Below, piece after piece: positions 9,135 to 48,544 of a stretch of 64,000 nt of DNA. The stretch is taken from the sequence record OL631479.1; one strand, written 5' to 3'. Within the stretch, counting starts at the first letter, position 1. The number at the start of each line of letters is the position of its first letter. The DNA is from Escherichia phage ECML-10. The notes under the pieces were generated by a model, which saw only the letters and a list, made by a program, of their open reading frames with translations, was not told where the DNA came from and did no database searches. Position numbers and translations under genes: made by a program.

Positions 9135-9135
9135 C

Positions 9136-9804
9136 TTAGATAGCTCCTGCGATAATCAGTGCCCCGTACCAAGTTAACCCGTTGTCGTAGGTTTCCAACT
9201 TGAAAATGTCTGTTGCACCAGCCGTGAATGTTAGGATAGGATCTCTTCCATAAGCCCATTTAACATTATCAGGCCAATAGACTTTGTTGCCGCCAGAGGT
9301 CTGCGTAATGCATACGGTTATAGTTCTCGCCACCCCTTCAAGACCTTCTGTTTGATTTTCAAAAGAGATTGTGGTATTTGAAGTTAGTCGAACTTTAAAG
9401 GTATCCGCAACTTCAAGATCCATATCAAGCTGACCACCGATAGATCCGTAATCAACTATTCTGCCAGAAGAAGTTGCAGCAAGCTCACCAAAAACAGACC
9501 AGGCATTTGCAGACACACCCCCAGCACCCTCTACAGTGGAGTCTGGGAGGATTATTTTAGGATAATCCCCGTTCCACGTGTAGTAGCGCTTAGTTTCGGG
9601 GTCGTAAGCAAAGTCCTTCTTGCTCTTAAGATAACCACCCTCTGTGAAATAGACTATCTTAGTAATGCTAAGATCGTTGACAACATCGTCAATCTTAGCC
9701 TTTCTTGTCCCATCAGTCTGGTTGACAACCAAGAAGTCATCACTCAGGACTGTTTCTGCATCTTCAAGATCTGGAATTGGTATTGTAGGATAAGCTACAG
9801 CCAT
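9136..9804 (-). CDS. Short tail fiber/spike protein sharing N-terminal anchor domain with long fiber
   Basis: 222 aa; N-terminus (DDFLVVNQTDGTRKAKIDDVV...YFTEGGYLKSKKDFAY) aligns with N-terminus of 2689-6501 product. Confidence 0.5.
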   Translation of the reverse strand: MAVAYPTIPIPDLEDAETVLSDDFLVVNQTDGTRKAKIDDVVNDLSITKIVYFTEGGYLKSKKDFAYDPETKRYYTWNGDYPKIILPDSTVEGAGGVSANAWSVFGELAATSSGRIVDYGSIGGQLDMDLEVADTFKVRLTSNTTISFENQTEGLEGVARTITVCITQTSGGNKVYWPDNVKWAYGRDPILTFTAGATDIFKLETYDNGLTWYGALIIAGAI

Positions 9805-9813
9805 GATTTCTCC

Positions 9814-10530
9814 TTAGTTAACATCAATAGCACGACCAGACTGGTTGGCAATAGCCTCATCGTTGGAGGTAGCAATAACACCAGAGTATTCGCGCTCATC
9901 TGGAGCAAGCGTCCAGGTATTGCGGTTAATGGTTTGTTCTGCCTCAGTCATCAGCAGATCTTTATCCTGAGTCAACAGAGAGCCTACAGGGATCGGGTTT
10001 TCCATCTCAGGACCAGCATACTGGTTCCACCATGTGGCATCTCCGGTTCTAGGCAACCTGAAGTTGATCAGATAGTACAGTTTATTAGCCCACTTAATCC
10101 AACCCTCATCATCACAGAGAGAGGTTGTCCCAGAATCAGGCTGTGGGTAGGTGAACTGATCAAGACCTACGAAAGCCAGTCTTACAATCTCGTTCTCTTT
10201 GGTAACAACCTCAAAGAACGCTTGGTATGTTCTCGATCTTCGATCCATGGTAGACTGGAAGTTTATGATGTTTAGCACATCCGGCTCTTGTCTTGCCACT
10301 TCCATGATCTTGTTATCAAGAACAGTCTTCATGACCTTCTTACTGAGAAAGTCCATATAAGGGAAGCCAAACAACTCGTCAAAGTACCAGCTCCCCTTCC
10401 ACGTATTAAACCTCATCCACAAGCGCTGGCGCAGACTTACCTGGTTTGAATCTATCAACTCAAGACCTTTGTCTATCGCCAAATCGCCTGTCTGTGGGTC
10501 CATCAATATATCACTATAAAGCGTAGCCAT
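9814..10530 (-). CDS. Putative baseplate protein
   Basis: 238 aa ORF between spike-like protein and fibers. Confidence 0.35.
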   Translation of the reverse strand: MATLYSDILMDPQTGDLAIDKGLELIDSNQVSLRQRLWMRFNTWKGSWYFDELFGFPYMDFLSKKVMKTVLDNKIMEVARQEPDVLNIINFQSTMDRRSRTYQAFFEVVTKENEIVRLAFVGLDQFTYPQPDSGTTSLCDDEGWIKWANKLYYLINFRLPRTGDATWWNQYAGPEMENPIPVGSLLTQDKDLLMTEAEQTINRNTWTLAPDEREYSGVIATSNDEAIANQSGRAIDVN

Positions 10531-10542
10531 GAAAGCCCTCTA

Positions 10543-11220
10543 TTAGTGCGGTCCACTTGTCTCGCCATCAGGGCAAGAGTGGGTATGACCTTTATATTCT
10601 GCATAGAATGAATCCAAATCCACACCAGCAGCAGTTATAATTCTACCAGATGGGTCTATTGTGGCACCATTCATTCTGATATTTCCATCCACAGCAGCTC
10701 GCAAATTGGCAGCCCCGTTAGTGAAAGAAAACTCCCCACTGCTGTCGCACCGTAATGTCCCACCAGGTGTTTGAAGCTCAAAATCGCCAGAAGGTGTCAG
10801 TTTAAAATAAACCCTATCATTCCATAACTCTACGTTATCAGGATCGATCTGTAAAGCGTTTGAGTCTGAATGAACAGAGGTGATTGCCCACCCTGGAAAC
10901 AGGCCGTGAGTTTGTTGATCGTCGTTATTGTTTTCATTTCTCTCTGAAAACTGCAATCCTACAACATCTCCGGCCTTAATAGGAAGTGTTAACCTTGCCT
11001 TTCCGCTGTTTGCGGACATCACTTGGATTGGAACGTCATAGATAAGAGGGTATCTCTCCACATCTCCGTCATCAAACGTGGTTTCAGCTATTGGCTGCAC
11101 GGCTGCAGAAGGTATACTGTAGTCAACACTGACAACTCTGGCCCTGATACTTGTGTGGTAGTCCCTCATCATTTTTTCTATGAAGGATCTTACAGCAGCA
11201 TCTTTCCTATTTATTGCCAT
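10543..11220 (-). CDS. Putative baseplate central spike protein
   Basis: 225 aa; Gly/Asn-rich beta-helix-like repeats and C-terminal His/Cys cluster (GHTHSCPDGETSGPH). Confidence 0.35.
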   Translation of the reverse strand: MAINRKDAAVRSFIEKMMRDYHTSIRARVVSVDYSIPSAAVQPIAETTFDDGDVERYPLIYDVPIQVMSANSGKARLTLPIKAGDVVGLQFSERNENNNDDQQTHGLFPGWAITSVHSDSNALQIDPDNVELWNDRVYFKLTPSGDFELQTPGGTLRCDSSGEFSFTNGAANLRAAVDGNIRMNGATIDPSGRIITAAGVDLDSFYAEYKGHTHSCPDGETSGPH

Positions 11221-12224
11221 TATACCTCCTCAGTTTTGTCAACAACTCCACCCACTGTTTCCCCAAGGCCAAGCTCTGTAGTGTAATCACCTCCTTCTAT
11301 GGTGCCCTTATGATGCACCGTGATCACCTTATAGAATCCTGTATATTGCTTGCTTTTAAGATAAATAGTGGACTCTGGGAGGATAGCTCCGTTAAGGCAG
11401 GTGGTTACAGTAAGGCCAACATCCTCTCTCGGGTTTTTCTTTTTCTTTTTAGATGTCGAACCACCTTTGGCAGCAGCTTTAGCTTTTCGTTTTTTAGCAG
11501 GTTCTGGGTTTTTAGGGGTAGGCGATCCGTGCATCCCAGACTCTGCACTTATTTCAAACACAGAGTCTTTGAACCTTTTTCCAACCTTGGTCCAATACAA
11601 AGCTCCATCCTGAACGCTAAATGTGGAGTTGGTCAGCCTTGCAAACCTGCGGAGGTTCTCTGCAGTGTTTCCAGAGAAAGCCATAGAGTATTGCAAAGTC
11701 TGGTTTCCAAAACCAACAACCCTACCTTTTGGCAAGTTCATATCCTTCAGTAGGTCATTAAGCACAGAGTTCAGAGGTGTGCCTTTCTGATAAGATCTTG
11801 TGCTTTGGCACTTAATGATGTTCTCAGTACCATCCCCGAAGATGAACTTAGTTTTTCTGGTCGGACCTTCCCATCTGTCTTCAACAAACTCTACAGTTCC
11901 GGAGAATATCAACTGGTTCTCATCATCATAGCCAGCTTCAAACATAACTGCAAGGGCATCAGCCTGATGCATATCCAGATAGTTAACTGTATCGTCAGAC
12001 AGGTTGTAAACTGTCACATAACCTTTGTTTGGCTCTTTGGTATTGTCCTTTTGTATGTCAAACTCTATATTGGCGGCACCAGTGTCTGAGCTAACTTCAT
12101 AAACTCCGGAATCACTCTCCCCTTTCTTTTCAACAGATTTTGGGATATTGGTTTTTGATTTACCGCCATGCTCTACCGGACGACCAAACAATAATCGCCA
12201 TGTTCTACGTCTGTACTCTGCCAT
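11220..12224 (-). CDS. Putative baseplate/tail hub protein
   Basis: 334 aa with Lys-rich internal linker; position after tape measure. Confidence 0.3.
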   Translation of the reverse strand: MAEYRRRTWRLLFGRPVEHGGKSKTNIPKSVEKKGESDSGVYEVSSDTGAANIEFDIQKDNTKEPNKGYVTVYNLSDDTVNYLDMHQADALAVMFEAGYDDENQLIFSGTVEFVEDRWEGPTRKTKFIFGDGTENIIKCQSTRSYQKGTPLNSVLNDLLKDMNLPKGRVVGFGNQTLQYSMAFSGNTAENLRRFARLTNSTFSVQDGALYWTKVGKRFKDSVFEISAESGMHGSPTPKNPEPAKKRKAKAAAKGGSTSKKKKKNPREDVGLTVTTCLNGAILPESTIYLKSKQYTGFYKVITVHHKGTIEGGDYTTELGLGETVGGVVDKTEEV

Positions 12225-18826: not shown

Positions 18827-19378
18827 TTACTGACCACTGTCTGTAACCGATTTATCAGAATTGGGTGAAGGGAAGTGTGTGGTTATTTCAGCCTTAATTC
18901 CCTGAAGATCCTCAAAAGCCCCAATGTCTGTCTCAACAAACCTTACGTTAAATGTCAGCATTACCGTGGCTCTATTTTCATACGTCTGCTTATTCAACGG
19001 CACTCTTTGAGGTGAGATTGTTGAATTGTTAGAGTAGGCAAAGCACGATCCCAGAGGGAAATACTTGTCATAAAACATTGGAAGGTTTATTGCTTGCAAT
19101 ACTCTGCTAAGTGCAGCATATGCCCTGCCGCGATAAGCTGTTAACAGATAAGTAACAGTGTAACTGTGGGTGACGTAAGCATTACCTTCCGCATCTTGAA
19201 ACTCATTATCTTCCCAAGTGGTGGGATTGATCGCCAGGGTTTGCAAAAGTACAAACTCACCTTCCGGCTTCGGTATGGTAGAGCTTTCTGCCAGAACTAC
19301 AGTTCTTCCTGTGGCAACCTTGACAAGCTTAGCGATGGTTGTTTCAAGATCAGAAAAAACTTTTTCGAAAGCTTCCAT
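18827..19378 (-). CDS. Hypothetical neck/tail-completion protein
   Basis: 183 aa ORF between capsid and tail genes. Confidence 0.3.
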   Translation of the reverse strand: MEAFEKVFSDLETTIAKLVKVATGRTVVLAESSTIPKPEGEFVLLQTLAINPTTWEDNEFQDAEGNAYVTHSYTVTYLLTAYRGRAYAALSRVLQAINLPMFYDKYFPLGSCFAYSNNSTISPQRVPLNKQTYENRATVMLTFNVRFVETDIGAFEDLQGIKAEITTHFPSPNSDKSVTDSGQ

Positions 19379-19803
19379 CAGTTTTCTCCTTCAGGCTCTT
19401 CTACCACAAAAAATCTATATCTTCCACCACCAGACGTGACATAAGCATCACATTTTAAAACGGTAAACCACTTCAGGTCACCACGGATGTCAGGCAGTTG
19501 AATTTGATCAGCCATTGCATATGTTCCTTCGTCTGGACTATACAACTTGGTTGAGGAGTAAACTGTAAAAGCCTCGTACTGTCTGTCACCCTCAGGATTT
19601 ATCTGGGAGGAGTAATCTTTAGCTGCCCTTCCTGTCAACGGCTGCACAACACACTCTAAGACATCAAACTCTTCATACTCAAGTTCTAACCCCTCGTTGG
19701 CAAAAGGGCCACCAACTGTTTTGTTATACACTCTGTGGCGACCTTTGAATGTTTTACGAGGTATTAGTCTGTTCTTTCCTATCAGCTTATAACCTGCTGC
19801 CAC
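19378..19803 (-). CDS. Hypothetical head-tail joining protein
   Basis: 141 aa ORF, start overlaps stop of upstream gene. Confidence 0.3.
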   Translation of the reverse strand: MAAGYKLIGKNRLIPRKTFKGRHRVYNKTVGGPFANEGLELEYEEFDVLECVVQPLTGRAAKDYSSQINPEGDRQYEAFTVYSSTKLYSPDEGTYAMADQIQLPDIRGDLKWFTVLKCDAYVTSGGGRYRFFVVEEPEGEN

Positions 19804-19819
19804 TCAACCCCCCTTATTT

Positions 19820-20290
19820 TTACTGTCCGATTTTAAAGGTTGCAGATTCAAGCAGCACATCGTAATGCCGCATAGCCTCGTTGAAGCCTTTCTCTTGTGC
19901 CCACTGCTCGCTAACAGTAGGATTACTAAACTGCCCAGCCTCAATAACAAACTGGATAGCTTTGGCCCCTGTGTCCCCCATCTGCTTAAGAATAGCCTCT
20001 GCACTCGATCCCCTAGCCATAGCTCTCAACAATTTTTCTGTCAAGGTCTGTAGTTGAGTACTATGAAATGCAAAAGCTGTCTCCATGAAATTGCGAACAG
20101 GCAGCCCGTTCCAACCGAAGTTGTGAATGGCTGCCAATGTTGCCATATTTAAGCCTGACGGGTGAGGTTCGTCATAAAAGCCGTAGGTTATTGTTTTACT
20201 TTCAAGTCTCACAAGCTCTTTGTAGAAGCGATCTAAACGCTTTAGGTTGAACCTTGTTTGACATTTAACCTTTAGCATTATATCCCTCAC
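19820..20290 (-). CDS. Hypothetical head-tail joining protein
   Basis: 156 aa ORF in connector region. Confidence 0.3.
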   Translation of the reverse strand: MRDIMLKVKCQTRFNLKRLDRFYKELVRLESKTITYGFYDEPHPSGLNMATLAAIHNFGWNGLPVRNFMETAFAFHSTQLQTLTEKLLRAMARGSSAEAILKQMGDTGAKAIQFVIEAGQFSNPTVSEQWAQEKGFNEAMRHYDVLLESATFKIGQ

Positions 20291-20331
20291 TAATGTATTT
20301 TACCACAAAGATGCATCAAAAGCAACAATTT

Positions 20332-21009
20332 TTAAAAACTGCGTTTGCGTCTTGGGTGGCGAGGAGGTTGGTTATTTAGACCACTGATAGGTGTAATCCC
20401 CTGGACATCGAACGGTCCGTTGCTGTTTTCATTAAATTTAACCCGAATTCCTTCGTCTACACGAACACCACCAATGATAATCATTCTGCTGTAAGCATCT
20501 AACTCAGAATCTACATAGTCTGGGTGTGCCAGCAGCCAATCAAGAAAATCCTTCCATTGGGCGTAGGAAGATCCACCACGAATCTCTATGGTCTCATCAC
20601 CTATTTTTTCCAGACGGGAAGTTATACTTGCATTACCACTGGACACTTCCTGCATCATCAGCCACCGCACAAGTTGCACAAGAACATTGTACTTAAGCAG
20701 CGGTAGCTTATCAGGATCTGCCGGATAATTTAGTTTCAACTTCTCCATGTCAAGGAATGTTTTAATTACCTCATCAGGGAGAGTTTCCTCATCAACATTG
20801 CCAAGCAATAACCTCATAATATCAATAAGAGGTTGGTCTGGATCAGGTTCCGGAGGCACAGGATCTTCTTTTGGTGGTTCTTCTGGGGTATCGACTACAC
20901 CATCATGGTTAGGCGGTGACGGGATAATCTCTTCATCTTCATACCATGCCATTTGAAAATACCTCGTAAAAATAAAGCCCCATTCCTGATTTGGAAGGGG
21001 CCTTAACAA
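20332..21009 (-). CDS. Hypothetical virion protein
   Basis: 225 aa with Pro/Glu-rich linker (PPEPDPDQP). Confidence 0.3.
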   Translation of the reverse strand: MLRPLPNQEWGFIFTRYFQMAWYEDEEIIPSPPNHDGVVDTPEEPPKEDPVPPEPDPDQPLIDIMRLLLGNVDEETLPDEVIKTFLDMEKLKLNYPADPDKLPLLKYNVLVQLVRWLMMQEVSSGNASITSRLEKIGDETIEIRGGSSYAQWKDFLDWLLAHPDYVDSELDAYSRMIIIGGVRVDEGIRVKFNENSNGPFDVQGITPISGLNNQPPRHPRRKRSF

Positions 21010-21011
21010 AA

Positions 21012-21839
21012 TTATGCCAGTGCAGCCTCAAAATCTTTCATCATATTTTGGAAAGTTTTTGCCTTACTTAAGGTAACACCGTACTCTTTAGCGAAGGTTT
21101 GGAGTGCATCTTTTGAACCACTTTTGTCATCTTCGTTGTTAAGAGCTGCGGCCTGTTTAAGGATTTCATCCTTATTCTCAACGGTTACAAATGAGGAAGA
21201 GGATACAGTCACATCTTGCGGATCTGCTACAGTAACTTCACCGTCACCACCAGGTTCAGTAGGACCTACAGGTGGCTCCGGCTCTGGTTCAGGCGGTGGA
21301 GCTATCGTAGAGACCAGTCCAAGATTTACAACCTGAGAACGTTTCTTAGGCCACTCAATGGTGAAAGTTTGGGTATCTTCTTCATAAACAATGTTGCATT
21401 GCTCATCGTTTATGGTCACTTTTTTAGGCATCCCTACAGGGTCCCATAGATGGCCCTCTGCCACGGAAACTTGGAAAGCCGCATCTACCTCTTTAAACAC
21501 TGACGGGGTGAGTGTGATATTGACATCACCGCTTTGCAGTGTTAAAGTGCTTTCATCAAGGTTCTCTGTGAAGAACAGAAGAATAACACCCATACGAATA
21601 GTTGAGATACCAGTATCAATTGGCAGGCCTGTGTGTTTTGCAATCTTCTCGAAGAAGTCTACAATCGTTCTGCACGGATAGTGAACACTGCCAATAACGA
21701 ATTCTGTTGGTGGCAGCAGGGCTGATAAACCAACATTGATTTCTGGATTGTATTGTGATAAAAATTGATAAAAACTTAACTGATTGTTGAAAACTCTTAA
21801 TAGAGGATCATACTCGACTGGATATACAGCTCTCTTCAC
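21012..21839 (-). CDS. Hypothetical virion protein
   Basis: 275 aa with Pro/Glu-rich linker (PPPEPEPEPPVGPTEPGG). Confidence 0.3.
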   Translation of the reverse strand: MKRAVYPVEYDPLLRVFNNQLSFYQFLSQYNPEINVGLSALLPPTEFVIGSVHYPCRTIVDFFEKIAKHTGLPIDTGISTIRMGVILLFFTENLDESTLTLQSGDVNITLTPSVFKEVDAAFQVSVAEGHLWDPVGMPKKVTINDEQCNIVYEEDTQTFTIEWPKKRSQVVNLGLVSTIAPPPEPEPEPPVGPTEPGGDGEVTVADPQDVTVSSSSFVTVENKDEILKQAAALNNEDDKSGSKDALQTFAKEYGVTLSKAKTFQNMMKDFEAALA

Positions 21840-30143: not shown

Positions 30144-30221
30144 GTGGTCTCCACGGAGTGATTCGAACACTCGACCTCCTGATCCCAAATCAGGCGCTCT
30201 ACCAAGCTGAGCTACGCGGAG
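30144..30221 (-). tRNA. tRNA-Pro (anticodon UGG)
   Basis: Hand-folded cloverleaf: 7-bp acceptor, T-loop TTCGAAT, anticodon loop UUUGGGA, encoded CCA. Confidence 0.75.
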
Positions 30222-30232
30222 TATTCATTATT

Positions 30233-30307
30233 TGGTGGCCCTGGGTGGAATTGAACCACCGTCTGGCGATTATGAGTCGCTTGCTTGAACCTTCCAGCTA
30301 CAGGGCC
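30233..30307 (-). tRNA. tRNA-Met (anticodon CAU; could be Ile-lysidine type)
   Basis: Acceptor GGCCCTG/CAGGGCC, T-loop TTCAATT, anticodon loop CUCAUAA, CCA encoded. Confidence 0.7.
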
Positions 30308-30308
30308 A

Positions 30309-30384
30309 TGGTGCTGATGGCAGGACTTGAACCTGCAACCTATTGATTACAAATCAATTGCACTACCAATTGTGCTACATCAGC
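30309..30384 (-). tRNA. tRNA-Thr (anticodon UGU)
   Basis: Acceptor GCTGATG/CATCAGC, D-stem GCAC/GTGC, anticodon loop UUUGUAA, T-loop TTCAAGT, CCA encoded. Confidence 0.7.
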
Positions 30385-30390
30385 AAAAAG

Positions 30391-30488
30391 GTGCTAGGTG
30401 ATGGAATCGAACCACCTATGTATTCAACGACTACCTCGTCTATTTTCAGGATTAAAAATCCTCGCCCTTGCCAAAGGGCTTACCTAGC
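30391..30488 (-). tRNA. Atypical tRNA-like gene (~98 nt), isotype unresolved
   Basis: Perfect 7-bp acceptor and 4-bp D-stem, T-loop TTCGATT; anticodon arm has only 4 bp with loop UUUUUAA (UUU) and a ~30-nt variable region. Confidence 0.4.
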
Positions 30489-30596
30489 TCAGTATGTTGA
30501 CCATGTTGCTAGTCGGCGATGACGACTGTAACATTTGATAATCCGGTTCTGCTTCCGGCTTTCGCTTAATTACAAGGTCAACAATATGGCAGAGGA

Positions 30597-30686
30597 TAAT
30601 GGAATCGAACCATCATCGAGTCATCCTCAACGGGACGGTTTTCAAGACCGCTTGAGCACCATTGCTCCCTACCCTCTTTTATAAAC
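30597..30686 (-). tRNA. tRNA-Ser (anticodon UGA)
   Basis: Type II tRNA with long variable arm; anticodon loop CUUGAAA; T-loop TTCGATT; CCA encoded. Confidence 0.65.
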
Positions 30687-30791
30687 AATACTGATAATGA
30701 CACTGATTTTCGAGCAGTTAGTGACTAGTATAAACGACGATAAATATCAATGCCATTATCTGTATGATTTATGCATTTAAAAATATAAATT

Positions 30792-30879
30792 TGGTGGTGA
30801 GTGATGGAGTCGAACCACCAGAATCGCAATGATAACAGATTTACAGTCTGCCCCGCTACCCCTACGGAATTAACTCACC
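30792..30879 (-). tRNA. tRNA-Tyr (anticodon GUA)
   Basis: Acceptor GGTGAGT/ACTCACC, anticodon loop CUGUAAA, long variable arm, T-loop TTCGACT, CCA encoded. Confidence 0.7.
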
Positions 30880-31009
30880 TAAATACTAATATTTAAATTC
30901 TTTTTAAAATAGCTAGTGTTCTCACCACTAACTATGAGGTATCGGTAAAGTGGTTACCGCCACTTGCCGAAGATTTACTCTGCTAAAGTAAGCTACATTA
31001 AAAAGAACT

Positions 31010-31084
31010 TGGCACCCCGTACTGGACTCGAACCAGTGTCAACGGCTTAGAAGGCCGCTGCTTTATCCACTAAGCTAACAGGGC
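31010..31084 (-). tRNA. tRNA-Arg (anticodon UCU)
   Basis: Acceptor with two G-U pairs, D-stem GCTT/AAGC, anticodon loop CUUCUAA, T-loop TTCGAGT, CCA encoded. Confidence 0.65.
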
Positions 31085-41971: not shown

Positions 41972-42254
41972 GAGACCTGTAAAAGAGAAATTCGATAAGA
42001 CAGCTTTTGTATTCGATACACCTCTGGACGACATCATTAGAGGTATGCAATCATTGTATCGGAAGGCTGAATCTGAGCAGCTGTCGGAATCAGAACTTTA
42101 CTGGCTCGGTTGGTGGGAGTTAAACCTGCCTAAAGCTGAAAGTTCTTCTCTGAGAACTGTTAAAACGTGCGCCCAAGAAAACGCTGCACTTGGAATCTAC
42201 CACAAAAGGAAAAGATCAACAAAAAGCTCTCCAAGAAAGACTAAAAAGTCTTGA
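41961..42254 (+). CDS. Hypothetical protein
   Basis: 97 aa ORF with basic C-terminus. Confidence 0.25.
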   Translation: MMAKRPVKEKFDKTAFVFDTPLDDIIRGMQSLYRKAESEQLSESELYWLGWWELNLPKAESSSLRTVKTCAQENAALGIYHKRKRSTKSSPRKTKKS

Positions 42255-42280
42255 CAAAAGTGTTATTAATCTGATATTAT
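42251..42280 (+). promoter_or_regulatory. Sigma70-like promoter (TTGACA-N18-TATTAT)
   Basis: Consensus -35; member of recurring GTTGACAAA...AGATATTATCGG family. Confidence 0.5.
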
Positions 42281-42313: not shown

Positions 42314-42622
42314 ATGCTTAAAATTTTTATTGTTGAAGATAAAGATATTGTCCAGTTGTATGCAAACGAGAATCATAAAGGTATGATTCTGAAGAAGGCA
42401 AGCAACCTTCATGAAAACACAATTCAACCTGGCGATGTAATTAAGATCTGTGGTTATATGATACCAGACTCCTTGATGAAAATAACCCACCACTGGGGGT
42501 CTAATCCGTTCCTTTTTGAAAAGTATTGGGATGTTGAGTCACTTATTGCAGAGAGTGATGATGCATTCCATTACAGCATCCAACCATCTTGCAGAATAAC
42601 TAACAGGAGGGTCTTTGAGTAG
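42314..42622 (+). CDS. Hypothetical protein
   Basis: 102 aa ORF with RBS AGGAGAA. Confidence 0.3.
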   Translation: MLKIFIVEDKDIVQLYANENHKGMILKKASNLHENTIQPGDVIKICGYMIPDSLMKITHHWGSNPFLFEKYWDVESLIAESDDAFHYSIQPSCRITNRRVFE

Positions 42623-43754
42623 AGAATATCCACTTATTGAGTCCATAGATTGTCTGGCTGATCTTCTTGAACCTGACGCTATAGTTTATTATGACTTCGA
42701 TCAGGTTGCATATCAAGCTGCAGCAAGTTGTGAAAAAAGGACAATTGAGGTAACACACAAAGCCTCCGGACGTAAGAAGATGTTTAAAACACGAACAGAG
42801 TTCTGGGGGCGGCAGAAGAACACAGTTGGTGGTTGGTTAAAAGCTGAGAATACCAACCGTGAAGCTGCATGTAAAAAGGCTGGCAAGGAGTTTATTCCGT
42901 GGACACGAGAAGATTTCGATGTCTTGGATATCCAAACCCCTGATCCTGTAGAGAACTGCTTGCACACAATTAAGTGTAAAGCGAATGCAGTCCTTAATTA
43001 TCTCGGTATTCCGGAAGATCGGTGCGTGGGGGTACTTGGAGGCACAGGTAATTTCAGACTAGATCTTCCCATGCCGGAAAGATATAAAGCCAACCGTAAC
43101 AATACTCTTCGACCACTGCTGCTTGGAGATGCAAGACAGTATCTCCAAAAGCAGTATAATGCTCAAGTGATCAACGGTATCGAGGCTGACGACTGGTTAG
43201 CTATCCAGCAATTTGAAGGTTGGAACCACTACCAAAAAACAGGTAAGTTCAACAAGTTTATTATCTCTATTGATAAGGACCAAAGAACACTGCCGGGGCT
43301 TGTGTTCGATCCCATGCGAAACGATAAGGGAGATTTTGTAAGGGAAACCCCTATGCTGATCGATAACGGTATGGGGAACATCTTCATGAAGCCTAATGGA
43401 GAGGTTGGTGGTTACGGAATGCTGTTCTTCGGATACCAAATGCTGTGTGGTGACTCTGCCGACAATATCAAGCCGTATCAAGGACTTATCGGTAAGGGTA
43501 AGTTCGGGGATGCCTCAGCATTCTACCTACTGTCTCAGTGCAGCACTCCAAAGGAGATGTGGGTGGCTATTATTGATCAGTACAAGAAGTGGTTCCCGAA
43601 AGGTGTTGTTAAGTATACTGACTTCAATGGTGTTGATCGTAGAATTTCCGTAGGTCAATGGATGAGTATAATTTTTGACTGTTTGTATATGAAGCGAACA
43701 TTCAATGATCAAACAAAACTTGTTAACGTTCTTAGAAATGTTGGAGCAATTTGA
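42615..43754 (+). CDS. 5'-3' exonuclease / flap endonuclease
   Basis: GIEADDWLA and LCGDSADNIKPYQGLIGKGKFGDAS (H3TH-like) motifs. Confidence 0.65.
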   Translation: MSREYPLIESIDCLADLLEPDAIVYYDFDQVAYQAAASCEKRTIEVTHKASGRKKMFKTRTEFWGRQKNTVGGWLKAENTNREAACKKAGKEFIPWTREDFDVLDIQTPDPVENCLHTIKCKANAVLNYLGIPEDRCVGVLGGTGNFRLDLPMPERYKANRNNTLRPLLLGDARQYLQKQYNAQVINGIEADDWLAIQQFEGWNHYQKTGKFNKFIISIDKDQRTLPGLVFDPMRNDKGDFVRETPMLIDNGMGNIFMKPNGEVGGYGMLFFGYQMLCGDSADNIKPYQGLIGKGKFGDASAFYLLSQCSTPKEMWVAIIDQYKKWFPKGVVKYTDFNGVDRRISVGQWMSIIFDCLYMKRTFNDQTKLVNVLRNVGAI

Positions 43755-44086
43755 TGACTAAAAATTCTGTAGATAGTGCAATTATGGAAGCTGTTTTTGA
43801 GGATGATCATACAACAGGGACACTTAAAACAAAAAATACATTCGTTGTTGCCACAGGTATGTGGCGGTTGTATGAAGATGACACCATTTCATACATCCTG
43901 TACACTGATGATTACGCAGATGACCGTGTATGGTCTGCTGTTTTAAAAGAGGATTGTGAACTGATTGAGGGCGAGCGGTTATGCATGTTCCCCAGTGTGG
44001 AAACAGATGTTAAGCTTTGCTCTCTCGTCTTGTTCAAAGATAAGGCTTATGCTCCTGATGAAGGAGAGGAGGATGAGGAAGTATGA
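43751..44086 (+). CDS. Hypothetical acidic protein
   Basis: 111 aa ORF, overlapping start/stop with neighbours. Confidence 0.25.
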   Translation: MMTKNSVDSAIMEAVFEDDHTTGTLKTKNTFVVATGMWRLYEDDTISYILYTDDYADDRVWSAVLKEDCELIEGERLCMFPSVETDVKLCSLVLFKDKAYAPDEGEEDEEV

Positions 44087-44712
44087 GAGAGCGTCTATTA
44101 TCCATAGACCAGTCGTTGACACACACAGCTTGCGTTGTATGGGACGATGGAAAGCCTGTTCATAAGGTTGTGTTACGAACTCAAAGCTCATCTGCAAAAG
44201 AGAAGAAACCAGGGACGGTTTCTTTTGCAACAGCTGCTGAGCGTATTGACTGGATCTGCAAACAGGTCAGATATTATATCCACACGCACGGAGTTGACAC
44301 CGTGGTTATGGAAGGACTTTCCTTCGGATCTCGCGGGGATGCCACACGTGAACTGGCTGGGTTGTTTTACGGTCTCGAAGTTATGCTTTGGGATGCTTTA
44401 GCTGATTGTGAAAATGACGGCCTGTTTAAGGTTCACACAGTGACACCAACAACTGCCAAAAAGTTTGCTCGTAGTCATCTTCCTGAAGAACTTGCTTTTG
44501 AGGAGAAGAAAAAGCTTGACAAAAAGACAGGTAAAGAGCATACTGTGAAGAAACCTGTTACGATGGATAAAAAGTTGATGGTTAAGGCCTGCGAAGTATC
44601 TGAACCAGGGTTCCTAGATGGGATCAATTTGGTACAAGGTAAGGCCGATCTCGCAGATGCTTATTGGATAGGCAGGGCGCATCTGGAGGGGTTATCGCAA
44701 AGCGTAAAATAA
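44083..44712 (+). CDS. RuvC-like Holliday junction resolvase
   Basis: N-terminal LLSIDQSLTHTACVVWDDGK and C-terminal KADLADAYWIGRAH resemble RuvC motifs. Confidence 0.5.
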   Translation: MRERLLSIDQSLTHTACVVWDDGKPVHKVVLRTQSSSAKEKKPGTVSFATAAERIDWICKQVRYYIHTHGVDTVVMEGLSFGSRGDATRELAGLFYGLEVMLWDALADCENDGLFKVHTVTPTTAKKFARSHLPEELAFEEKKKLDKKTGKEHTVKKPVTMDKKLMVKACEVSEPGFLDGINLVQGKADLADAYWIGRAHLEGLSQSVK

Positions 44713-45269
44713 GAAAGAAAGCTGTCAAAGCCCCCGTTCATAGCGGGTGGCTAAAAGATTCTAAGGACATAGCCAACTTTCGAAAAGAATTGTCAGAGGA
44801 GCAGGATGGTCTTGATCCGATCTTGTGCGAGCCACTTCGTAAGCCTTGTTTAGATCATGATCATCTGACTGGTCGTTGCAGGGGTGTTTTGTCTCAGTGC
44901 ACTAATACCTTTGAGGGGTATGTGCTTAAATACTGGATGAAATACTGTAACGAGTATACAGATTGCAGTTTATCAGAGGCGTTGCGCCGGATGGCTGACT
45001 ATCTGGAGAAAGACTACAGCGACTTCCCGCTCCACAAAAACTACAGAGATGATATGACAAAGTTCTTGAGGAGATGCTCTAAAGCTACGATTATTGCACG
45101 AGCAGAATCAGATCTCAATCTTGTCATTAATCCAGAGTGCACCAAGCATGAGGCTATTGAGTCCTACATGCAGGAGTTTATAAAGAAAACTGAGGAGAGA
45201 GATTTCTATGGGGATGAAAAAGGTATTCAATCCTTGCGACTCAGTCCTGATCAGGATGAAATACCGTAA
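44664..45269 (+). CDS. Endonuclease VII-like (T4 gp49-type) resolvase
   Basis: CLDHDHLTGRCRGVLSQCTN motif; start uncertain (TTG 44664 overlapping upstream gene, no early in-frame ATG). Confidence 0.65.
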   Translation: MDRQGASGGVIAKRKIRKKAVKAPVHSGWLKDSKDIANFRKELSEEQDGLDPILCEPLRKPCLDHDHLTGRCRGVLSQCTNTFEGYVLKYWMKYCNEYTDCSLSEALRRMADYLEKDYSDFPLHKNYRDDMTKFLRRCSKATIIARAESDLNLVINPECTKHEAIESYMQEFIKKTEERDFYGDEKGIQSLRLSPDQDEIP

Positions 45270-45429
45270 CTGGAAAGGTGTTGTTGCAGATCGCTGCGTT
45301 ACTGAGCCTAATTTATGGTTTGGCTCTACAGAGTATCATAAAGAAGAGCAGTGGTTGATGCATGCCTTTGATGTAGACAAGGGCGAATATCGTGACTTCG
45401 CTTTAAAAGACATTCTTCAGTTTTACTAA
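45208..45429 (+). CDS. Hypothetical small protein
   Basis: 73 aa ORF overlapping 3' end of preceding gene in another frame. Confidence 0.2.
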   Translation: MGMKKVFNPCDSVLIRMKYRNWKGVVADRCVTEPNLWFGSTEYHKEEQWLMHAFDVDKGEYRDFALKDILQFY

Positions 45430-45441
45430 GGAATTTTGACG

Positions 45442-46425
45442 ATGATGGCAAAGTTAACTCTTGAGCAAATTTTAACACTAAAGCAGCAGGGATACACTAA
45501 TAGACAAATTGCTCGTGAATTTTTAGGCCGTGAGTCACGTGAGAGTTGGATCCGACTACAGCTTAAACGTGCACAAGAGAATATGTCAGAGATTGTAGGA
45601 GAAGCAACGGAGCGCTTCCTTGAAGAACACAAAGGAGCTAAAGTTTGGGTGTATGATACAGAAACATCACCAACAAACGGCTGGTTCTTTGGGCACTATA
45701 AGACCAACATTCAAACCTGCGGTATTGAAATTATGCCCTATATGCTAACTTTCGCAGGTAAGTGGTTAGACAGTCCTAGTGTGGTTGACTGCGCTCTTCC
45801 CGATTACAAAATGTGGGATGAGGATATTCACAATGACCTCGAATTGATTCAGGACTTGTGGTATTATCTGGATAAATGTGATGTCGCAGTAGCCCACAAT
45901 TCAGGTTTTGACTGTGGGTGGGCAAACCAACGATTTGCATTTCACGGGTTGCCTCCAACAAGCCCATACAAAGAGGTTGACACCCTTAAAATGATCAAGA
46001 AGGCATTCCGTTTGAATGCAAACACTTTGGAGTATGCATGCAAATACTTCCAACTTGCCAGACAGAAACTGATTGACCACACATTTGAAATGTGGATCAA
46101 GTGTGTTCATGGTGATCTTGAGGCGTTTAAACAGATGCGGGAGTACAATGTTGGTGATATCCTATCTCTGGAAGGCCTGTATTTGCTGGCACGCCCGTTT
46201 GCTAAGCAGCACCCCAACATGTCATTGTACTACCAGGATGAGGAGCCAAAAGTTCGTTGCCCACGCTGCGGTGGAGAACACCTTCACGAGGAAGAAGCTT
46301 TGGCGTATACTCAACTGAGTGCATTTAAAACATATCGCTGCGAAGGTTGTGGATCTGTTGTTCGTGACCGTAACAACATCCGTACCAGAGAAGAAATGAA
46401 AAACACCCTGATTCAGATAATCTAA
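45442..46425 (+). CDS. HTH / DEDD-family 3'-5' exonuclease / Zn-ribbon fusion protein
   Basis: N-terminal HTH-like LKQQGYTNRQIAREF; VWVYDTETSP, AHNSGFD, EYNVGD exonuclease motifs; C-terminal CPRCG...CEGCG. Confidence 0.5.
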   Translation: MMAKLTLEQILTLKQQGYTNRQIAREFLGRESRESWIRLQLKRAQENMSEIVGEATERFLEEHKGAKVWVYDTETSPTNGWFFGHYKTNIQTCGIEIMPYMLTFAGKWLDSPSVVDCALPDYKMWDEDIHNDLELIQDLWYYLDKCDVAVAHNSGFDCGWANQRFAFHGLPPTSPYKEVDTLKMIKKAFRLNANTLEYACKYFQLARQKLIDHTFEMWIKCVHGDLEAFKQMREYNVGDILSLEGLYLLARPFAKQHPNMSLYYQDEEPKVRCPRCGGEHLHEEEALAYTQLSAFKTYRCEGCGSVVRDRNNIRTREEMKNTLIQII

Positions 46426-46434
46426 TCAAGTATA

Positions 46435-46462
46435 GGGAGGCTTGCGCCTCCCTTTTCCTTTT
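46435..46462 (+). terminator. Rho-independent terminator
   Basis: Hairpin GGGAGGC-UUGC-GCCUCCC followed by UUUUCCUUUU. Confidence 0.5.
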
Positions 46463-46471
46463 GGAGGCACT

Positions 46472-47290
46472 TTGAGCAAGAAAGAGTCCAACGACAAATA
46501 TTACACAAACCCTGAGTATGCAGAATATCTTGTTGGTAAAGTAAAAGATAAGTATGGAAATTGTGCATACGTTGAGCCTTCTGCTGGAAGGGGTTCTTTT
46601 TCAAAACTATTTTCAGAGATACTGTCTTACGATCTAGTACCAGATCCTGAATTTGAAGGACCAACACCGTGCATTCAGGCAAACTTCTTGGAGGTGCATC
46701 CCAAGGCAGATGTCTTCATAGGTAACCCACCATTTGGCAAGAATTCATCTTTAGCTTGCAAATTCTTTAACCATTGTGCATCATTGCTAGAGCTTGGAGG
46801 GGCTATAGCCTTCATCTTGCCACGGACATTTGAAAAAATATTTTTTGCAAACAAACTGGACATGTCGATGCACCTTGTCTACAGTGAAAGGTGCCCTAAG
46901 AACTCGTTTCTACTTAATGGCAAACCTTATGACGTGCCGTGTGTTTTCCAAATTTGGGAGAAAAAGGCGTGCAACAGGGATCCTGTAGAGATTGGGGAGA
47001 ATAAGTTATTTTCTTTTAGCACTCCAGATGACTACGACTTCTGTGTAAGACGTGTTGGGTATAATGCTGGAAAAGTATTGGGGGAGGATGACCCAAAATC
47101 TGAAGAATCAACATATTTCATAAAATCTTTAGTTGACGGTGTTGACAGAGTGTTTGCTGAATGCTATTCTTCTTTTCAAGAAGAAGCAGGTAAGACTGCC
47201 GGAATGAAGAGTATAGGTAAGAAAGAACTACAATACATTTTGGAGACTAGGTATGATCAAAAGCATAGACTTGACCAAAGAACTTACTGA
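46472..47290 (+). CDS. N6-adenine DNA methyltransferase
   Basis: Motif I-like VEPSAGRGSF and motif IV NPPFG; start TTG 46472 after GGAGG (no early in-frame ATG). Confidence 0.6.
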   Translation: MSKKESNDKYYTNPEYAEYLVGKVKDKYGNCAYVEPSAGRGSFSKLFSEILSYDLVPDPEFEGPTPCIQANFLEVHPKADVFIGNPPFGKNSSLACKFFNHCASLLELGGAIAFILPRTFEKIFFANKLDMSMHLVYSERCPKNSFLLNGKPYDVPCVFQIWEKKACNRDPVEIGENKLFSFSTPDDYDFCVRRVGYNAGKVLGEDDPKSEESTYFIKSLVDGVDRVFAECYSSFQEEAGKTAGMKSIGKKELQYILETRYDQKHRLDQRTY

Positions 47291-47711
47291 TGCAAAAGCT
47301 TTTGGTGAGACAGCGGTACAAAGGGGGCAGGCGATGGGACTGGCACTACCTTTCGTATTAAAAGAGCACTTTACAGATTTTCAACTTATCAAGGGTGATA
47401 AGGGAATGCTTATCCTGGAGCATAAGTTGAGTAAGAAACGCTATAAAGTTGTTTTTAATTCTAAAGCTCCAACAAAACTGGGATTCAGAACTTACAATCT
47501 TAACCCATCCTACACTAAGGGTGTTGGAAGGGTAGAACAACAGCATTTCAGTGCCAGAGCTTCTTTAGCCCCTTTGATGCTAAATTTCTCAGGGGTGGCT
47601 TTAGGATACCTTGATAAGAAAAGAGTTCTTCATGTCCGTTTCACAGACTTTGTAACGCTTCTAGCCAACAACGAGGTTGATGAAAAGGGACGTGTAAAAA
47701 CAAACTTCTAA
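47253..47711 (+). CDS. Hypothetical protein
   Basis: 152 aa ORF overlapping end of methyltransferase gene. Confidence 0.3.
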   Translation: MIKSIDLTKELTDAKAFGETAVQRGQAMGLALPFVLKEHFTDFQLIKGDKGMLILEHKLSKKRYKVVFNSKAPTKLGFRTYNLNPSYTKGVGRVEQQHFSARASLAPLMLNFSGVALGYLDKKRVLHVRFTDFVTLLANNEVDEKGRVKTNF

Positions 47712-47738
47712 TAACGCATAGTATGATTGGAGAACGCA

Positions 47739-47930
47739 ATGACACTAAAGTTAACAATTCCAGACAGCTTTTCAGAAGACTTTATCCCAGAAATGATGGG
47801 TAAGATGCGATCATTGCTTGATCAGATCGAGGAAGCTGTTTGGGAAGACGATGCTGTAGTGGCTAACGAGCTGGTAGATAAGTGTAAAAGTATTATTGAT
47901 GCAGTTGAAGAATACCACGGAGGTTTTTGA
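47739..47930 (+). CDS. Hypothetical small acidic protein
   Basis: ATG 47739 with RBS GGAGAA. Confidence 0.25.
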   Translation: MTLKLTIPDSFSEDFIPEMMGKMRSLLDQIEEAVWEDDAVVANELVDKCKSIIDAVEEYHGGF

Positions 47931-48544
47931 TGGATATTATTGTTCTTAACGCCCCACCCAGCAGTGGTAAGGATCACATTGCAGATCTCTTGTTGGAAGC
48001 TATTCCTAACTCACACCACCGTGAGGTTAAGGAGATGCTCTTCAGTGTGGCAATTAAGGCAGCTGGTGTAACTCCTCAACTCTGGAATGCACTTTATGAC
48101 CGCCACTACAAAGAAGAGCCTTGCCCTTTCTTAATGATAGACGGCAAGCATGTTTCTCCGCGAGAATGGATGATCCATTGTAGTGAAAATCTGATTAAAC
48201 CTATCTTTGGTGAAGATGCTTTCGGTAAAGCCGCAGTCGCATCTTTGAAGAAAGATTTCCCTAAAGGTAAAGGGGTTGTTGTTTACTCCGATGGTGGATT
48301 CAAAGAGGAGCTGGCATGCCTTAGCGAGTACGCGTACAGCACAGGTGGAGATCTGTTGTTGTTCCGTATTCACCGTGTCGGATATGACTGGGGAAATGAT
48401 TCCAGAACCTATCTAAGTCTGGAAAAGAACGGAATAAAAGGAATTGAGTTCGATGTTGTAAACCCTGAAGGTGCACCTTGGGAATGTGCATCGGAGATTG
48501 TGTGCAAGTATATTGATGCTAAAGAGGCCCAAGAAGAATGTTAA
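47930..48544 (+). CDS. Putative deoxynucleoside monophosphate kinase
   Basis: N-terminal P-loop variant NAPPSSGKD resembling T4 gp1-type kinases; RBS GGAGG. Confidence 0.4.
   Translation: MDIIVLNAPPSSGKDHIADLLLEAIPNSHHREVKEMLFSVAIKAAGVTPQLWNALYDRHYKEEPCPFLMIDGKHVSPREWMIHCSENLIKPIFGEDAFGKAAVASLKKDFPKGKGVVVYSDGGFKEELACLSEYAYSTGGDLLLFRIHRVGYDWGNDSRTYLSLEKNGIKGIEFDVVNPEGAPWECASEIVCKYIDAKEAQEEC

Follow-up and report, generated by a model that had tools for sequence, protein, structure and literature searches.

A free-standing DEDDy exonuclease with predicted helix-turn-helix and zinc-ribbon modules at the end of a nuclease gene block in an rV5-like coliphage

The DNA analysed here (the window) is a stretch of 64,000 nucleotides (nt) from Escherichia phage ECML-10 (sequence record OL631479.1), a Vequintavirus, that is, an rV5-like myovirus of E. 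coli. Our subject is a single gene within it, at 45442..46425 on the + strand, which encodes a phrog_403-family protein of 327 amino acids (aa) in which a predicted helix-turn-helix (HTH) is followed by a DEDDy 3′-5′ exonuclease core and a predicted Cys4 zinc ribbon. The open reading frame (ORF) is intact, beginning with an ATG at 45442 and closing with a stop codon that ends at 46425, and a Shine-Dalgarno-like AAGGA (45428..45432, + strand) can be read in the sequence 9 nt 5′ of the ATG. HeinrichReichert and EdH4, two identical phages, have an annotated coding sequence (CDS) with the same coordinates. The 4-kilobase (kb) stretch compared, window positions 44000-48000, shows 100% identity to phages EdH4, ime and HeinrichReichert, and a further search result is that matches at ≥90% identity number 120 phage records. 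Among the matches at ≥90% nucleotide identity are 20 GenBank records named ‘Campylobacter phage’ (host C. jejuni, ~140 kb), one of which, A140, encodes a protein 99.1% identical to the one described here; this suggests mislabelled hosts or contaminating coliphages in these submissions.

Catalytic core and flanking modules

The exonuclease core, with a predicted RNase H-like fold, spans residues ~66-255 (45637..46206, + strand) and carries the three motifs of its superfamily. Exo I is YDTET (residues 71-75; 45652..45666, + strand), providing D72 and E74, Exo II is HNSGFD (residues 152-157; 45895..45912, + strand), providing N153 and D157, and Exo III is YNVGD (residues 235-239; 46144..46158, + strand), providing Y235 and D239 in an arrangement of the DEDDy type. 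We examined conservation in two independent alignments, one of 78 diverse relatives and one of 159 sequences (158 representatives plus the query). D72, E74, D157, Y235 and D239 are invariant in the first. In the second, each is found in 157-158 of the 159 sequences (D72, E74 and Y235 in 157, D157 and D239 in 158), the remainder being gaps, and N153 is retained in 154. The original prediction, made from the sequence alone, had called the protein a DEDD exonuclease and named loss of the catalytic residues as the observation that would overturn this; because these residues are conserved, the call stands. All of the motifs quoted in support of it, namely LKQQGYTNRQIAREF, YDTET, HNSGFD, YNVGD, CPRC and CEGC, are present, far beyond chance expectation.

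Assignment to a subgroup depends on motif alignments and fold. The protein displays the features of DEDDy enzymes, with DxE, Nx2-3(F/Y)D, a Yx3D Exo III motif containing Tyr rather than His, and an RNase H-like alpha/beta fold. The Exo II motif aligns with HNAAFD (the D103 region) of E. coli epsilon, and a sequence search of the Protein Data Bank (PDB) with the protein returned only this epsilon Exo II region, at an expect value (E) of ~0.007. Using hhalign, Exo III was paired with DYNVQD of the T7 gp5 exonuclease domain (Exo III only, probability 36%), while BLASTP against the same domain gave nothing significant. An AlphaFold2 model computed from the 78-sequence alignment has high confidence, with a mean predicted local distance difference test (pLDDT) score of 87.8 and a predicted template modelling (pTM) score of 0.73, and its best structural matches are the editing domains of family-B polymerases (PolB), indicating a PolB-exonuclease-like fold. 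Sequence identity to these editing domains (Pyrobaculum, Pyrococcus, Pol epsilon, E. coli Pol II) is 13-17%, and they differ in that our protein is a free-standing 327-aa polypeptide lacking a polymerase domain and bearing an HTH and a zinc ribbon that PolB editing domains do not have. In contrast, the Hx4D motif that defines DEDDh enzymes of the DnaQ/epsilon kind is not found, as Exo III reads Yx3D with Tyr in 157/159 sequences. DnaQ equivalog models likewise score far below their cutoffs (PRK05711, 26.8 bits versus 196; TIGR01406, 23 versus 222.7), with only the Exo II region aligned, and there is no recognised alpha-subunit-binding C-terminus such as DnaQ epsilon possesses. Because the catalytic residues are kept, and because of the motif alignments and the modelled fold, we classify the protein by sequence and predicted structure as a DEDDy exonuclease of PolB-exonuclease type, not a DEDDh DnaQ. 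Two other comparisons were set aside. ExnV1 (PDB 7r0t), considered as a characterised viral relative, is a truncated PolA exonuclease domain unrelated to this family. A terminase-like reading, raised by the combination of an HTH with an RNase H-like fold and by the adjacency of a relative to a portal gene in one contig (L010, below), was rejected given that there is no ATPase domain and that both catalytic motif and fold point to a DEDDy exonuclease.

The N-terminal HTH occupies residues ~5-45 (45454..45576, + strand) and holds LKQQGYTNRQIAREF at residues 13-27. Helices are predicted at residues 7-15, 20-28 and 31-62, the third of which runs on as a long linker helix to residue 62. Matches of the single sequence to HTH families (HTH_38, HTH_7) are sub-threshold, with HTH_38 reaching E 0.003 on the isolated N-terminus. 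At the level of the family the signal is clearer, with 20/40 N-termini matching HTH_38 and 18/40 matching HTH_23 in Pfam, and an N-terminal family profile searched against the PDB finds the PAI subdomain of Sleeping Beauty (E 5e-7), RhlR and Tn3 resolvase. The N-terminus is thus a helix-turn-helix module with predicted DNA-binding ability. An N-terminal extension of ≥40 residues is found in ~80% of the family, while the rest, including mycobacteriophage and Xanthomonas forms, start at the exonuclease core.

At the other end of the protein, a Cys4 ribbon followed by a terminal helix (46249..46377, + strand) is formed by CPRC at residues 273-276 and CEGC at residues 300-303. C273 is present in 158/159 aligned sequences and C276, C300 and C303 in 156/159 each, with two of the four Cys lost in one marine sub-clade. 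The model places a three-stranded beta-ribbon here (strands 281-289, 294-300 and 306-312), and several zinc-ribbon families in Pfam match at E ~2e-3, all below threshold; the region is a predicted zinc ribbon. The three-module layout of HTH, DEDD core and zinc ribbon that had been proposed from the sequence is right, with independent support for each module. As the HTH extension, the four Cys and the core recur across the family, this tripartite architecture is real and ancestral to most of its members.

Family membership and existing annotation

Direct Pfam and NCBIfam scans of the protein gave only sub-threshold hits (the Exo II region of RNase_T, zinc ribbons, HTH_38/HTH_7), and family-level and structural evidence was therefore required. 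The phrog_403 profile (‘DNA polymerase exonuclease subunit’) matches over the full length, aligning residues 4-326 of 327 to profile positions 4-320 of 321 at E 2e-110. Relatives were found by tblastn in 1,527 phage records, including ICP1 (gp189), phiKMV-like phages, phiL7, Ralstonia and Arthrobacter phages and many mycobacteriophage genomes, and a profile search run exhaustively against 1.84 billion cluster representatives recovered 4,721 at E≤1e-3, with 1,800 at E≤1e-30. Most relatives at 25-30% identity carry a precomputed Pfam assignment to PF13482 (RNase_H_2, YprB-like) and some to PF10108 (PolB-exonuclease-like); the protein itself has no PF13482 match at E≤0.1 in the Pfam scan, though these relatives pass threshold. 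In the classification of Majorek et al. (2014; PMC3985635), the phage cluster of PF13482 is F.23, placed beside the PolB exonuclease clusters, and PF13482 as a whole is described as an uncharacterised family of presumed 3′-5′ exonuclease activity. Our protein is a member of phrog_403 and of this phage cluster with no structural difference from them, and the relatives in ICP1, phiKMV-like phages, phiL7, LKA1 and mycobacteriophages share its length, its DEDDy residues and its four Cys.

The original prediction had regarded a free-standing exonuclease with its own DNA-binding modules as unusual. This does not hold, as the family is very large, catalogued and annotated; public databases already contain the sequence, its family and its naming as an exonuclease, and the architecture is common, that of an ordinary phage gene. 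How the family is named is a separate matter. Names given to the CDS in near-identical records are ‘hypothetical protein’, ‘DNA polymerase exonuclease subunit’, ‘putative DNA polymerase/exonuclease’ and ‘DnaQ-like 3′-5′ exonuclease’. Neither ‘polymerase exonuclease subunit’ nor ‘DnaQ-like’ is precise or supported; the motif is DEDDy and not DEDDh. The phrog_403 name implies a polymerase subunit, which the evidence gathered below does not support.

The nuclease gene block and its counterparts

The exonuclease gene is the last in a block of co-oriented genes on the + strand that extends from a promoter-like site at 42251 to a terminator at 46434. The former is a strong sigma-70-like sequence (TTGACA, 18 nt, TATTAT; 42251..42280), identified solely by a consensus scan with 11/12 matches and an extended-10 TG, and would likely start the nuclease transcription unit. 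The first ORF after it (42314..42622, 102 aa) matches phrog_14449 ‘transposase’ at E 2e-72 and is noted as a ‘transposase-like protein’ in EdH4; its product, too small for a transposase, could be a further DNA-binding protein of HTH type. There follow a FEN/RNase H-type 5′-3′ exonuclease (42615..43754; phrog_107, E 6e-71; annotated as a putative 5′-exonuclease), a 111-aa ORF, a candidate RuvC-like Holliday junction resolvase (44083..44712; phrog_159, E 3e-39), and endonuclease VII (EndoVII), a packaging/recombination endonuclease (44664..45269; PF02945 at E 1.4e-7, above cutoff; phrog_423, phrog_29095). Between EndoVII and the exonuclease gene lies a 73-aa ORF (45208..45429; phrog_3715, E 5e-26) with only weak WYL/SH3-like matches otherwise. 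It covers only the C-terminal third of phrog_3715 (positions 121-189 of 251) and could represent either a remnant or a small free-standing domain; in phage RsoP1IDN a small ORF likewise sits between EndoVII and the homolog of our gene. The RuvC-like ORF and EndoVII overlap by 49 nt (44664-44712), and EndoVII and the 73-aa ORF by 62 nt (45208-45269); either the start or end of EndoVII is mis-set or the genes are translationally coupled.

Located 9 nt past the stop codon, a terminator scan found an intrinsic terminator-like hairpin with an 8-base-pair stem (6 G-C pairs) and a T tract (46434..46463, + strand). The RNA fold has an energy of −19.2 kcal/mol (z −2.3), and EdH4 has an annotated terminator at the same position. 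Beyond it are a methyltransferase, a deoxynucleoside monophosphate (dNMP) kinase (phrog_139) and an NT5C-like nucleotidase, with thymidylate synthase and ribonucleotide reductases further on according to the annotation of an identical phage. In the mechanical ORF list the methyltransferase starts at a TTG at 46442, inside the terminator hairpin, while deposited annotations start it at 46472; the latter, past the hairpin, fits the terminator better. Elsewhere in the window is a tRNA cluster of seven genes (30145-31084). One of these, a 99-nt gene at 30390-30488 on the − strand, is given a four-base anticodon by ARAGORN (tRNA-???) and scores only 35.5 bits with Rfam, and at the same location the record of an identical phage has an annotated 97-nt tRNA-Lys; an insertion, an intron or degeneration of the tRNA could account for this.

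The order of genes around the exonuclease is partly preserved in distant phages. The succession of 5′-exonuclease, EndoVII and family member recurs in phiKMV-like, phiL7 and RsoP1IDN phages, and ICP1 and a 116-kb contig of an ICP1/rV5-like large phage (L012) have the same neighbourhood of nuclease and nucleotide-metabolism blocks. We analysed 67 loci, consisting of 10 fetched earlier and 57 of 78 retrieved from IMG/VR. A junction resolvase lies within 4 kb of the family gene in 18 of them, and in 13 it ends ≤700 nt upstream on the same strand. The 13 upstream resolvases are of three unrelated kinds, namely EndoVII, PD-(D/E)XK enzymes of phrog_190, and NinG/Rap. A RecE-like ExoVIII (phrog_412/DUF3799) is encoded immediately downstream of the family gene in 8/67 loci, and in Cjw1 a RecA-like gene adjoins it.

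Two of the contigs have further particulars. In L012, a Rv2179c-like 3′-5′ exonuclease (PF16473, which we take to be a DexA-related family) is encoded at 6724-7347, right after EndoVII, in addition to the family member, and these two stand-alone 3′-5′ exonucleases are probably not redundant. In L010, a metagenomic siphovirus contig (JAAEOM010000052), the family member is found between NinG/Rap and a portal gene (7108-11366), next come a DUF3310 protein and an ORF of 217 aa that matches no PHROG, and no large terminase is recognisable at its usual place before the portal gene.

Proposed role and competing explanations

DEDD exonucleases hydrolyse nucleic acid stepwise from a free 3′ end using two metal ions. 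Our tentative preference, held somewhat short of even confidence, is that the protein is a stand-alone enzyme of this two-metal-ion kind that trims 3′ ends and flaps in phage recombination and DNA maturation. Its identity as an exonuclease and its architecture draw on sequence and a predicted structure, and the recombination and maturation role, suggested by gene context, is the most likely of those considered. Mechanistically, D72, E74, D157 and D239 would hold two Mg2+ ions and Y235 would position the attacking water, and the enzyme would work inwards from a free 3′ end, nucleotide by nucleotide. The HTH, of transposase/resolvase/LuxR type, connected through its long helix, and the Cys4 ribbon most likely tether the enzyme to DNA or to a partner protein. 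In this manner, 3′ ends and 3′ flaps would be trimmed during recombination-dependent replication and in the clean-up of branched DNA before packaging, with the enzyme working alongside the co-transcribed 5′-3′ exonuclease (FEN), RuvC-like protein and EndoVII.

A number of observations weigh against this role. That the substrate is DNA rather than RNA is assumed. The resolvase linkage is suggestive, given that the 67 loci are not phylogenetically independent and that the counts come with no formal background; in 40/67 loci no recombination gene is recognisable nearby, with neighbour annotation that is shallow, and in some phages the family gene follows a lysis cassette or sits beside structural genes such as the portal. 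The nucleotide-metabolism block just past the terminator fits a role in salvage equally well. Other points would suit a proofreading enzyme, including a core fold shared with polymerase editing domains and the location of the family gene a few kb downstream of PolA in podoviruses. In addition, the rV5-type PolA reads DRVFED at Exo III, against DYNVQD in T7 gp5, with an Arg at the position of the Tyr. The marine T7-like PolAs found alongside the family show the same Arg (HRCEED) and retain all four acidic residues; such Arg-for-Tyr polymerases leave room for a complementing proofreader. Finally, a literature search on the function of the family (DnaQ-like phage exonuclease, YprB, PF13482, phiKMV proofreading) found no biochemical or genetic characterisation of any member.

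An unlikely, though better surviving, alternative is that the enzyme takes part in host-DNA degradation and nucleotide salvage, converting fragments generated by the phage endonucleases to dNMPs that would be recycled by enzymes encoded nearby (dNMP kinase, thymidylate synthase and ribonucleotide reductase). The precedent is T4 DexA (exonuclease A), a stand-alone phage DEDD 3′-5′ exonuclease used in host-DNA breakdown. Both DexA and our protein are free-standing phage 3′-5′ exonucleases encoded in a DNA-metabolism gene block; DexA is not known to have the HTH and zinc-ribbon modules, and our sequence searches returned no match of the protein to a DexA-type family. The position of the gene between a nuclease block and a nucleotide-metabolism block, repeated in ICP1 and L012, is what this explanation would lead one to expect, yet a terminator separates the gene from the nucleotide-metabolism genes, and L012 already has its extra Rv2179c-like enzyme, presumably DexA-related and probably not redundant with the family member. 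The family is also carried by small temperate phages, which do not break down host DNA in quantity, and bulk degradation has no obvious need of an HTH that reads sequence. The sole experimental result found for the family is the moderate cytotoxicity on overexpression of Girr gp37, a homolog from a cluster-F1 mycobacteriophage (PMC11075535), a toxicity that would be compatible with salvage. Host-DNA degradation, one of the functions offered in the original prediction, is a minor possibility; the context favours instead recombination and branched-DNA processing, which was not among the options listed there.

Less probable again is that the protein acts in trans as a proofreading subunit, binding PolA and removing misincorporated 3′ nucleotides, which is the sense of the labels ‘DnaQ-like’ and ‘DNA polymerase exonuclease subunit’. 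Beyond the shared fold and the podovirus gene order, it could draw on the PolAs of rV5-like and marine T7-like phages that lack the Exo III Tyr and on those of phiKMV-like phages and phiL7, in which Exo III spacing is non-canonical. The polymerase of rV5-type phages, bas58_0076, is T7-like and of family A, is interrupted by an intron with a homing endonuclease, and is encoded outside the window, ~50 kb from the exonuclease gene, which is probably transcribed with nucleases instead; in MZ501073, the DNA polymerase is at 18929-21358 of locus L003, also outside the window. In an alignment of the N-terminus of the rV5-type polymerase with the exonuclease domain of T7 gp5, the acidic residues D, E, D and D are all retained, so that this polymerase, unlike the one in DnaQ’s setting, has its own exonuclease site. 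The marine T7-like PolAs retain the four acidic residues as well, and phiKMV-like PolAs are rated exonuclease-proficient in ~95% of sequences (Czernecki et al., 2023; PMC10201439). The PolI of Arthrobacter phage Heylee, which coexists with a family member, has a Pfam-detectable exonuclease domain (PF01612) with a canonical YNAYD. OlympiaSaint, a temperate cluster-F mycobacteriophage whose family homolog is directly after the lysis cassette, has no polymerase annotated across 23.9-58.3 kb, a range that leaves its left arm (genes 1-21) outside. None of the rV5-type PolA, Heylee PolI and OlympiaSaint therefore presents a partner polymerase without an editing site of its own. Further arguments against a proofreading subunit are that the motif is DEDDy and not the DEDDh of DnaQ, whose equivalog model reaches 27 bits against a cutoff of 196, and that deletion in B. 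subtilis of yprB, the namesake of PF13482, produces no mutator phenotype (PMC5627055).

We considered two general rules that could have linked the family to polymerases, and neither survives. The first, that co-resident polymerases are devoid of an editing domain, was rejected on the motifs of phiL7 gp46, the proficiency of phiKMV-like PolAs (PMC10201439) and the PF01612 domain of Heylee. The phiL7 gp46 gene (L017 1855-3291, − strand) has a GenBank note reading ‘DNA polymerase lacking N-terminal exonuclease domain’, which looks outdated, as the N-terminus contains LDLET (Exo I), HNGKFD (Exo II) and, interrupted by an insertion, a Y...GD segment resembling Exo III. The second, that the Tyr-to-Arg change in Exo III of PolA always accompanies the family, holds in rV5-like and marine T7-like phages and fails in Heylee. 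A variant in which the family complements PolAs that have lost the catalytic Tyr from their editing site, as have those of rV5-like and marine T7-like phages with their Arg, is less likely than the resolvase-partner reading given below. The PolA genes of loci L034, L040, L046, L059 and L086 keep the acidic residues and have Arg at the Exo III Tyr position, and these genomes carry the stand-alone DEDDy exonuclease. Taken together, the protein is probably not the proofreading subunit of the polymerase, and gene context weakens the proofreading function suggested in the original prediction. Anti-defence was also raised there; a nuclease that would act by removing host immune nucleic acids or signals (guide or retron 3′ ends, oligonucleotide messengers) is highly improbable, as PADLOC gave only generic DEDDh similarity and no defence or anti-defence lead, the similarities reflect a shared fold in which PolB editing domains score higher, the gene belongs to a core DNA-metabolism operon kept across very different phages and hosts, unlike variable accessory anti-defence loci, and nothing was found to link it to a defence system.

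Returning to recombination and DNA maturation, a more specific and doubtful form of this reading is that resolvase and HTH-tethered 3′-5′ exonuclease constitute a conserved module, in which the family would be the 3′-end-processing partner of Holliday junction resolvases and maybe no polymerase accessory. Here, EndoVII, PD-(D/E)XK enzymes of phrog_190, NinG/Rap and RuvC-like proteins would be swapped beside the same exonuclease in myo-, podo- and siphoviruses. What the present analysis adds to the existing annotation is the PolB-type DEDDy class, confirmation of the HTH and ribbon at the level of the family, evidence against the subunit label, and the operon and resolvase linkage as a lead. 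Members of the family coexist with polymerases proficient in proofreading, and one occurs in a phage for which the regions examined contain no annotated polymerase. Many of the ~1,500 matching phage records bear the names ‘DnaQ-like’ and ‘DNA polymerase exonuclease subunit’, which are unsupported annotations to be corrected. If the link to resolvases is true, phage recombination or DNA maturation would have in this family a widespread and uncharacterised component, and one that could be tested cheaply by biochemical means.

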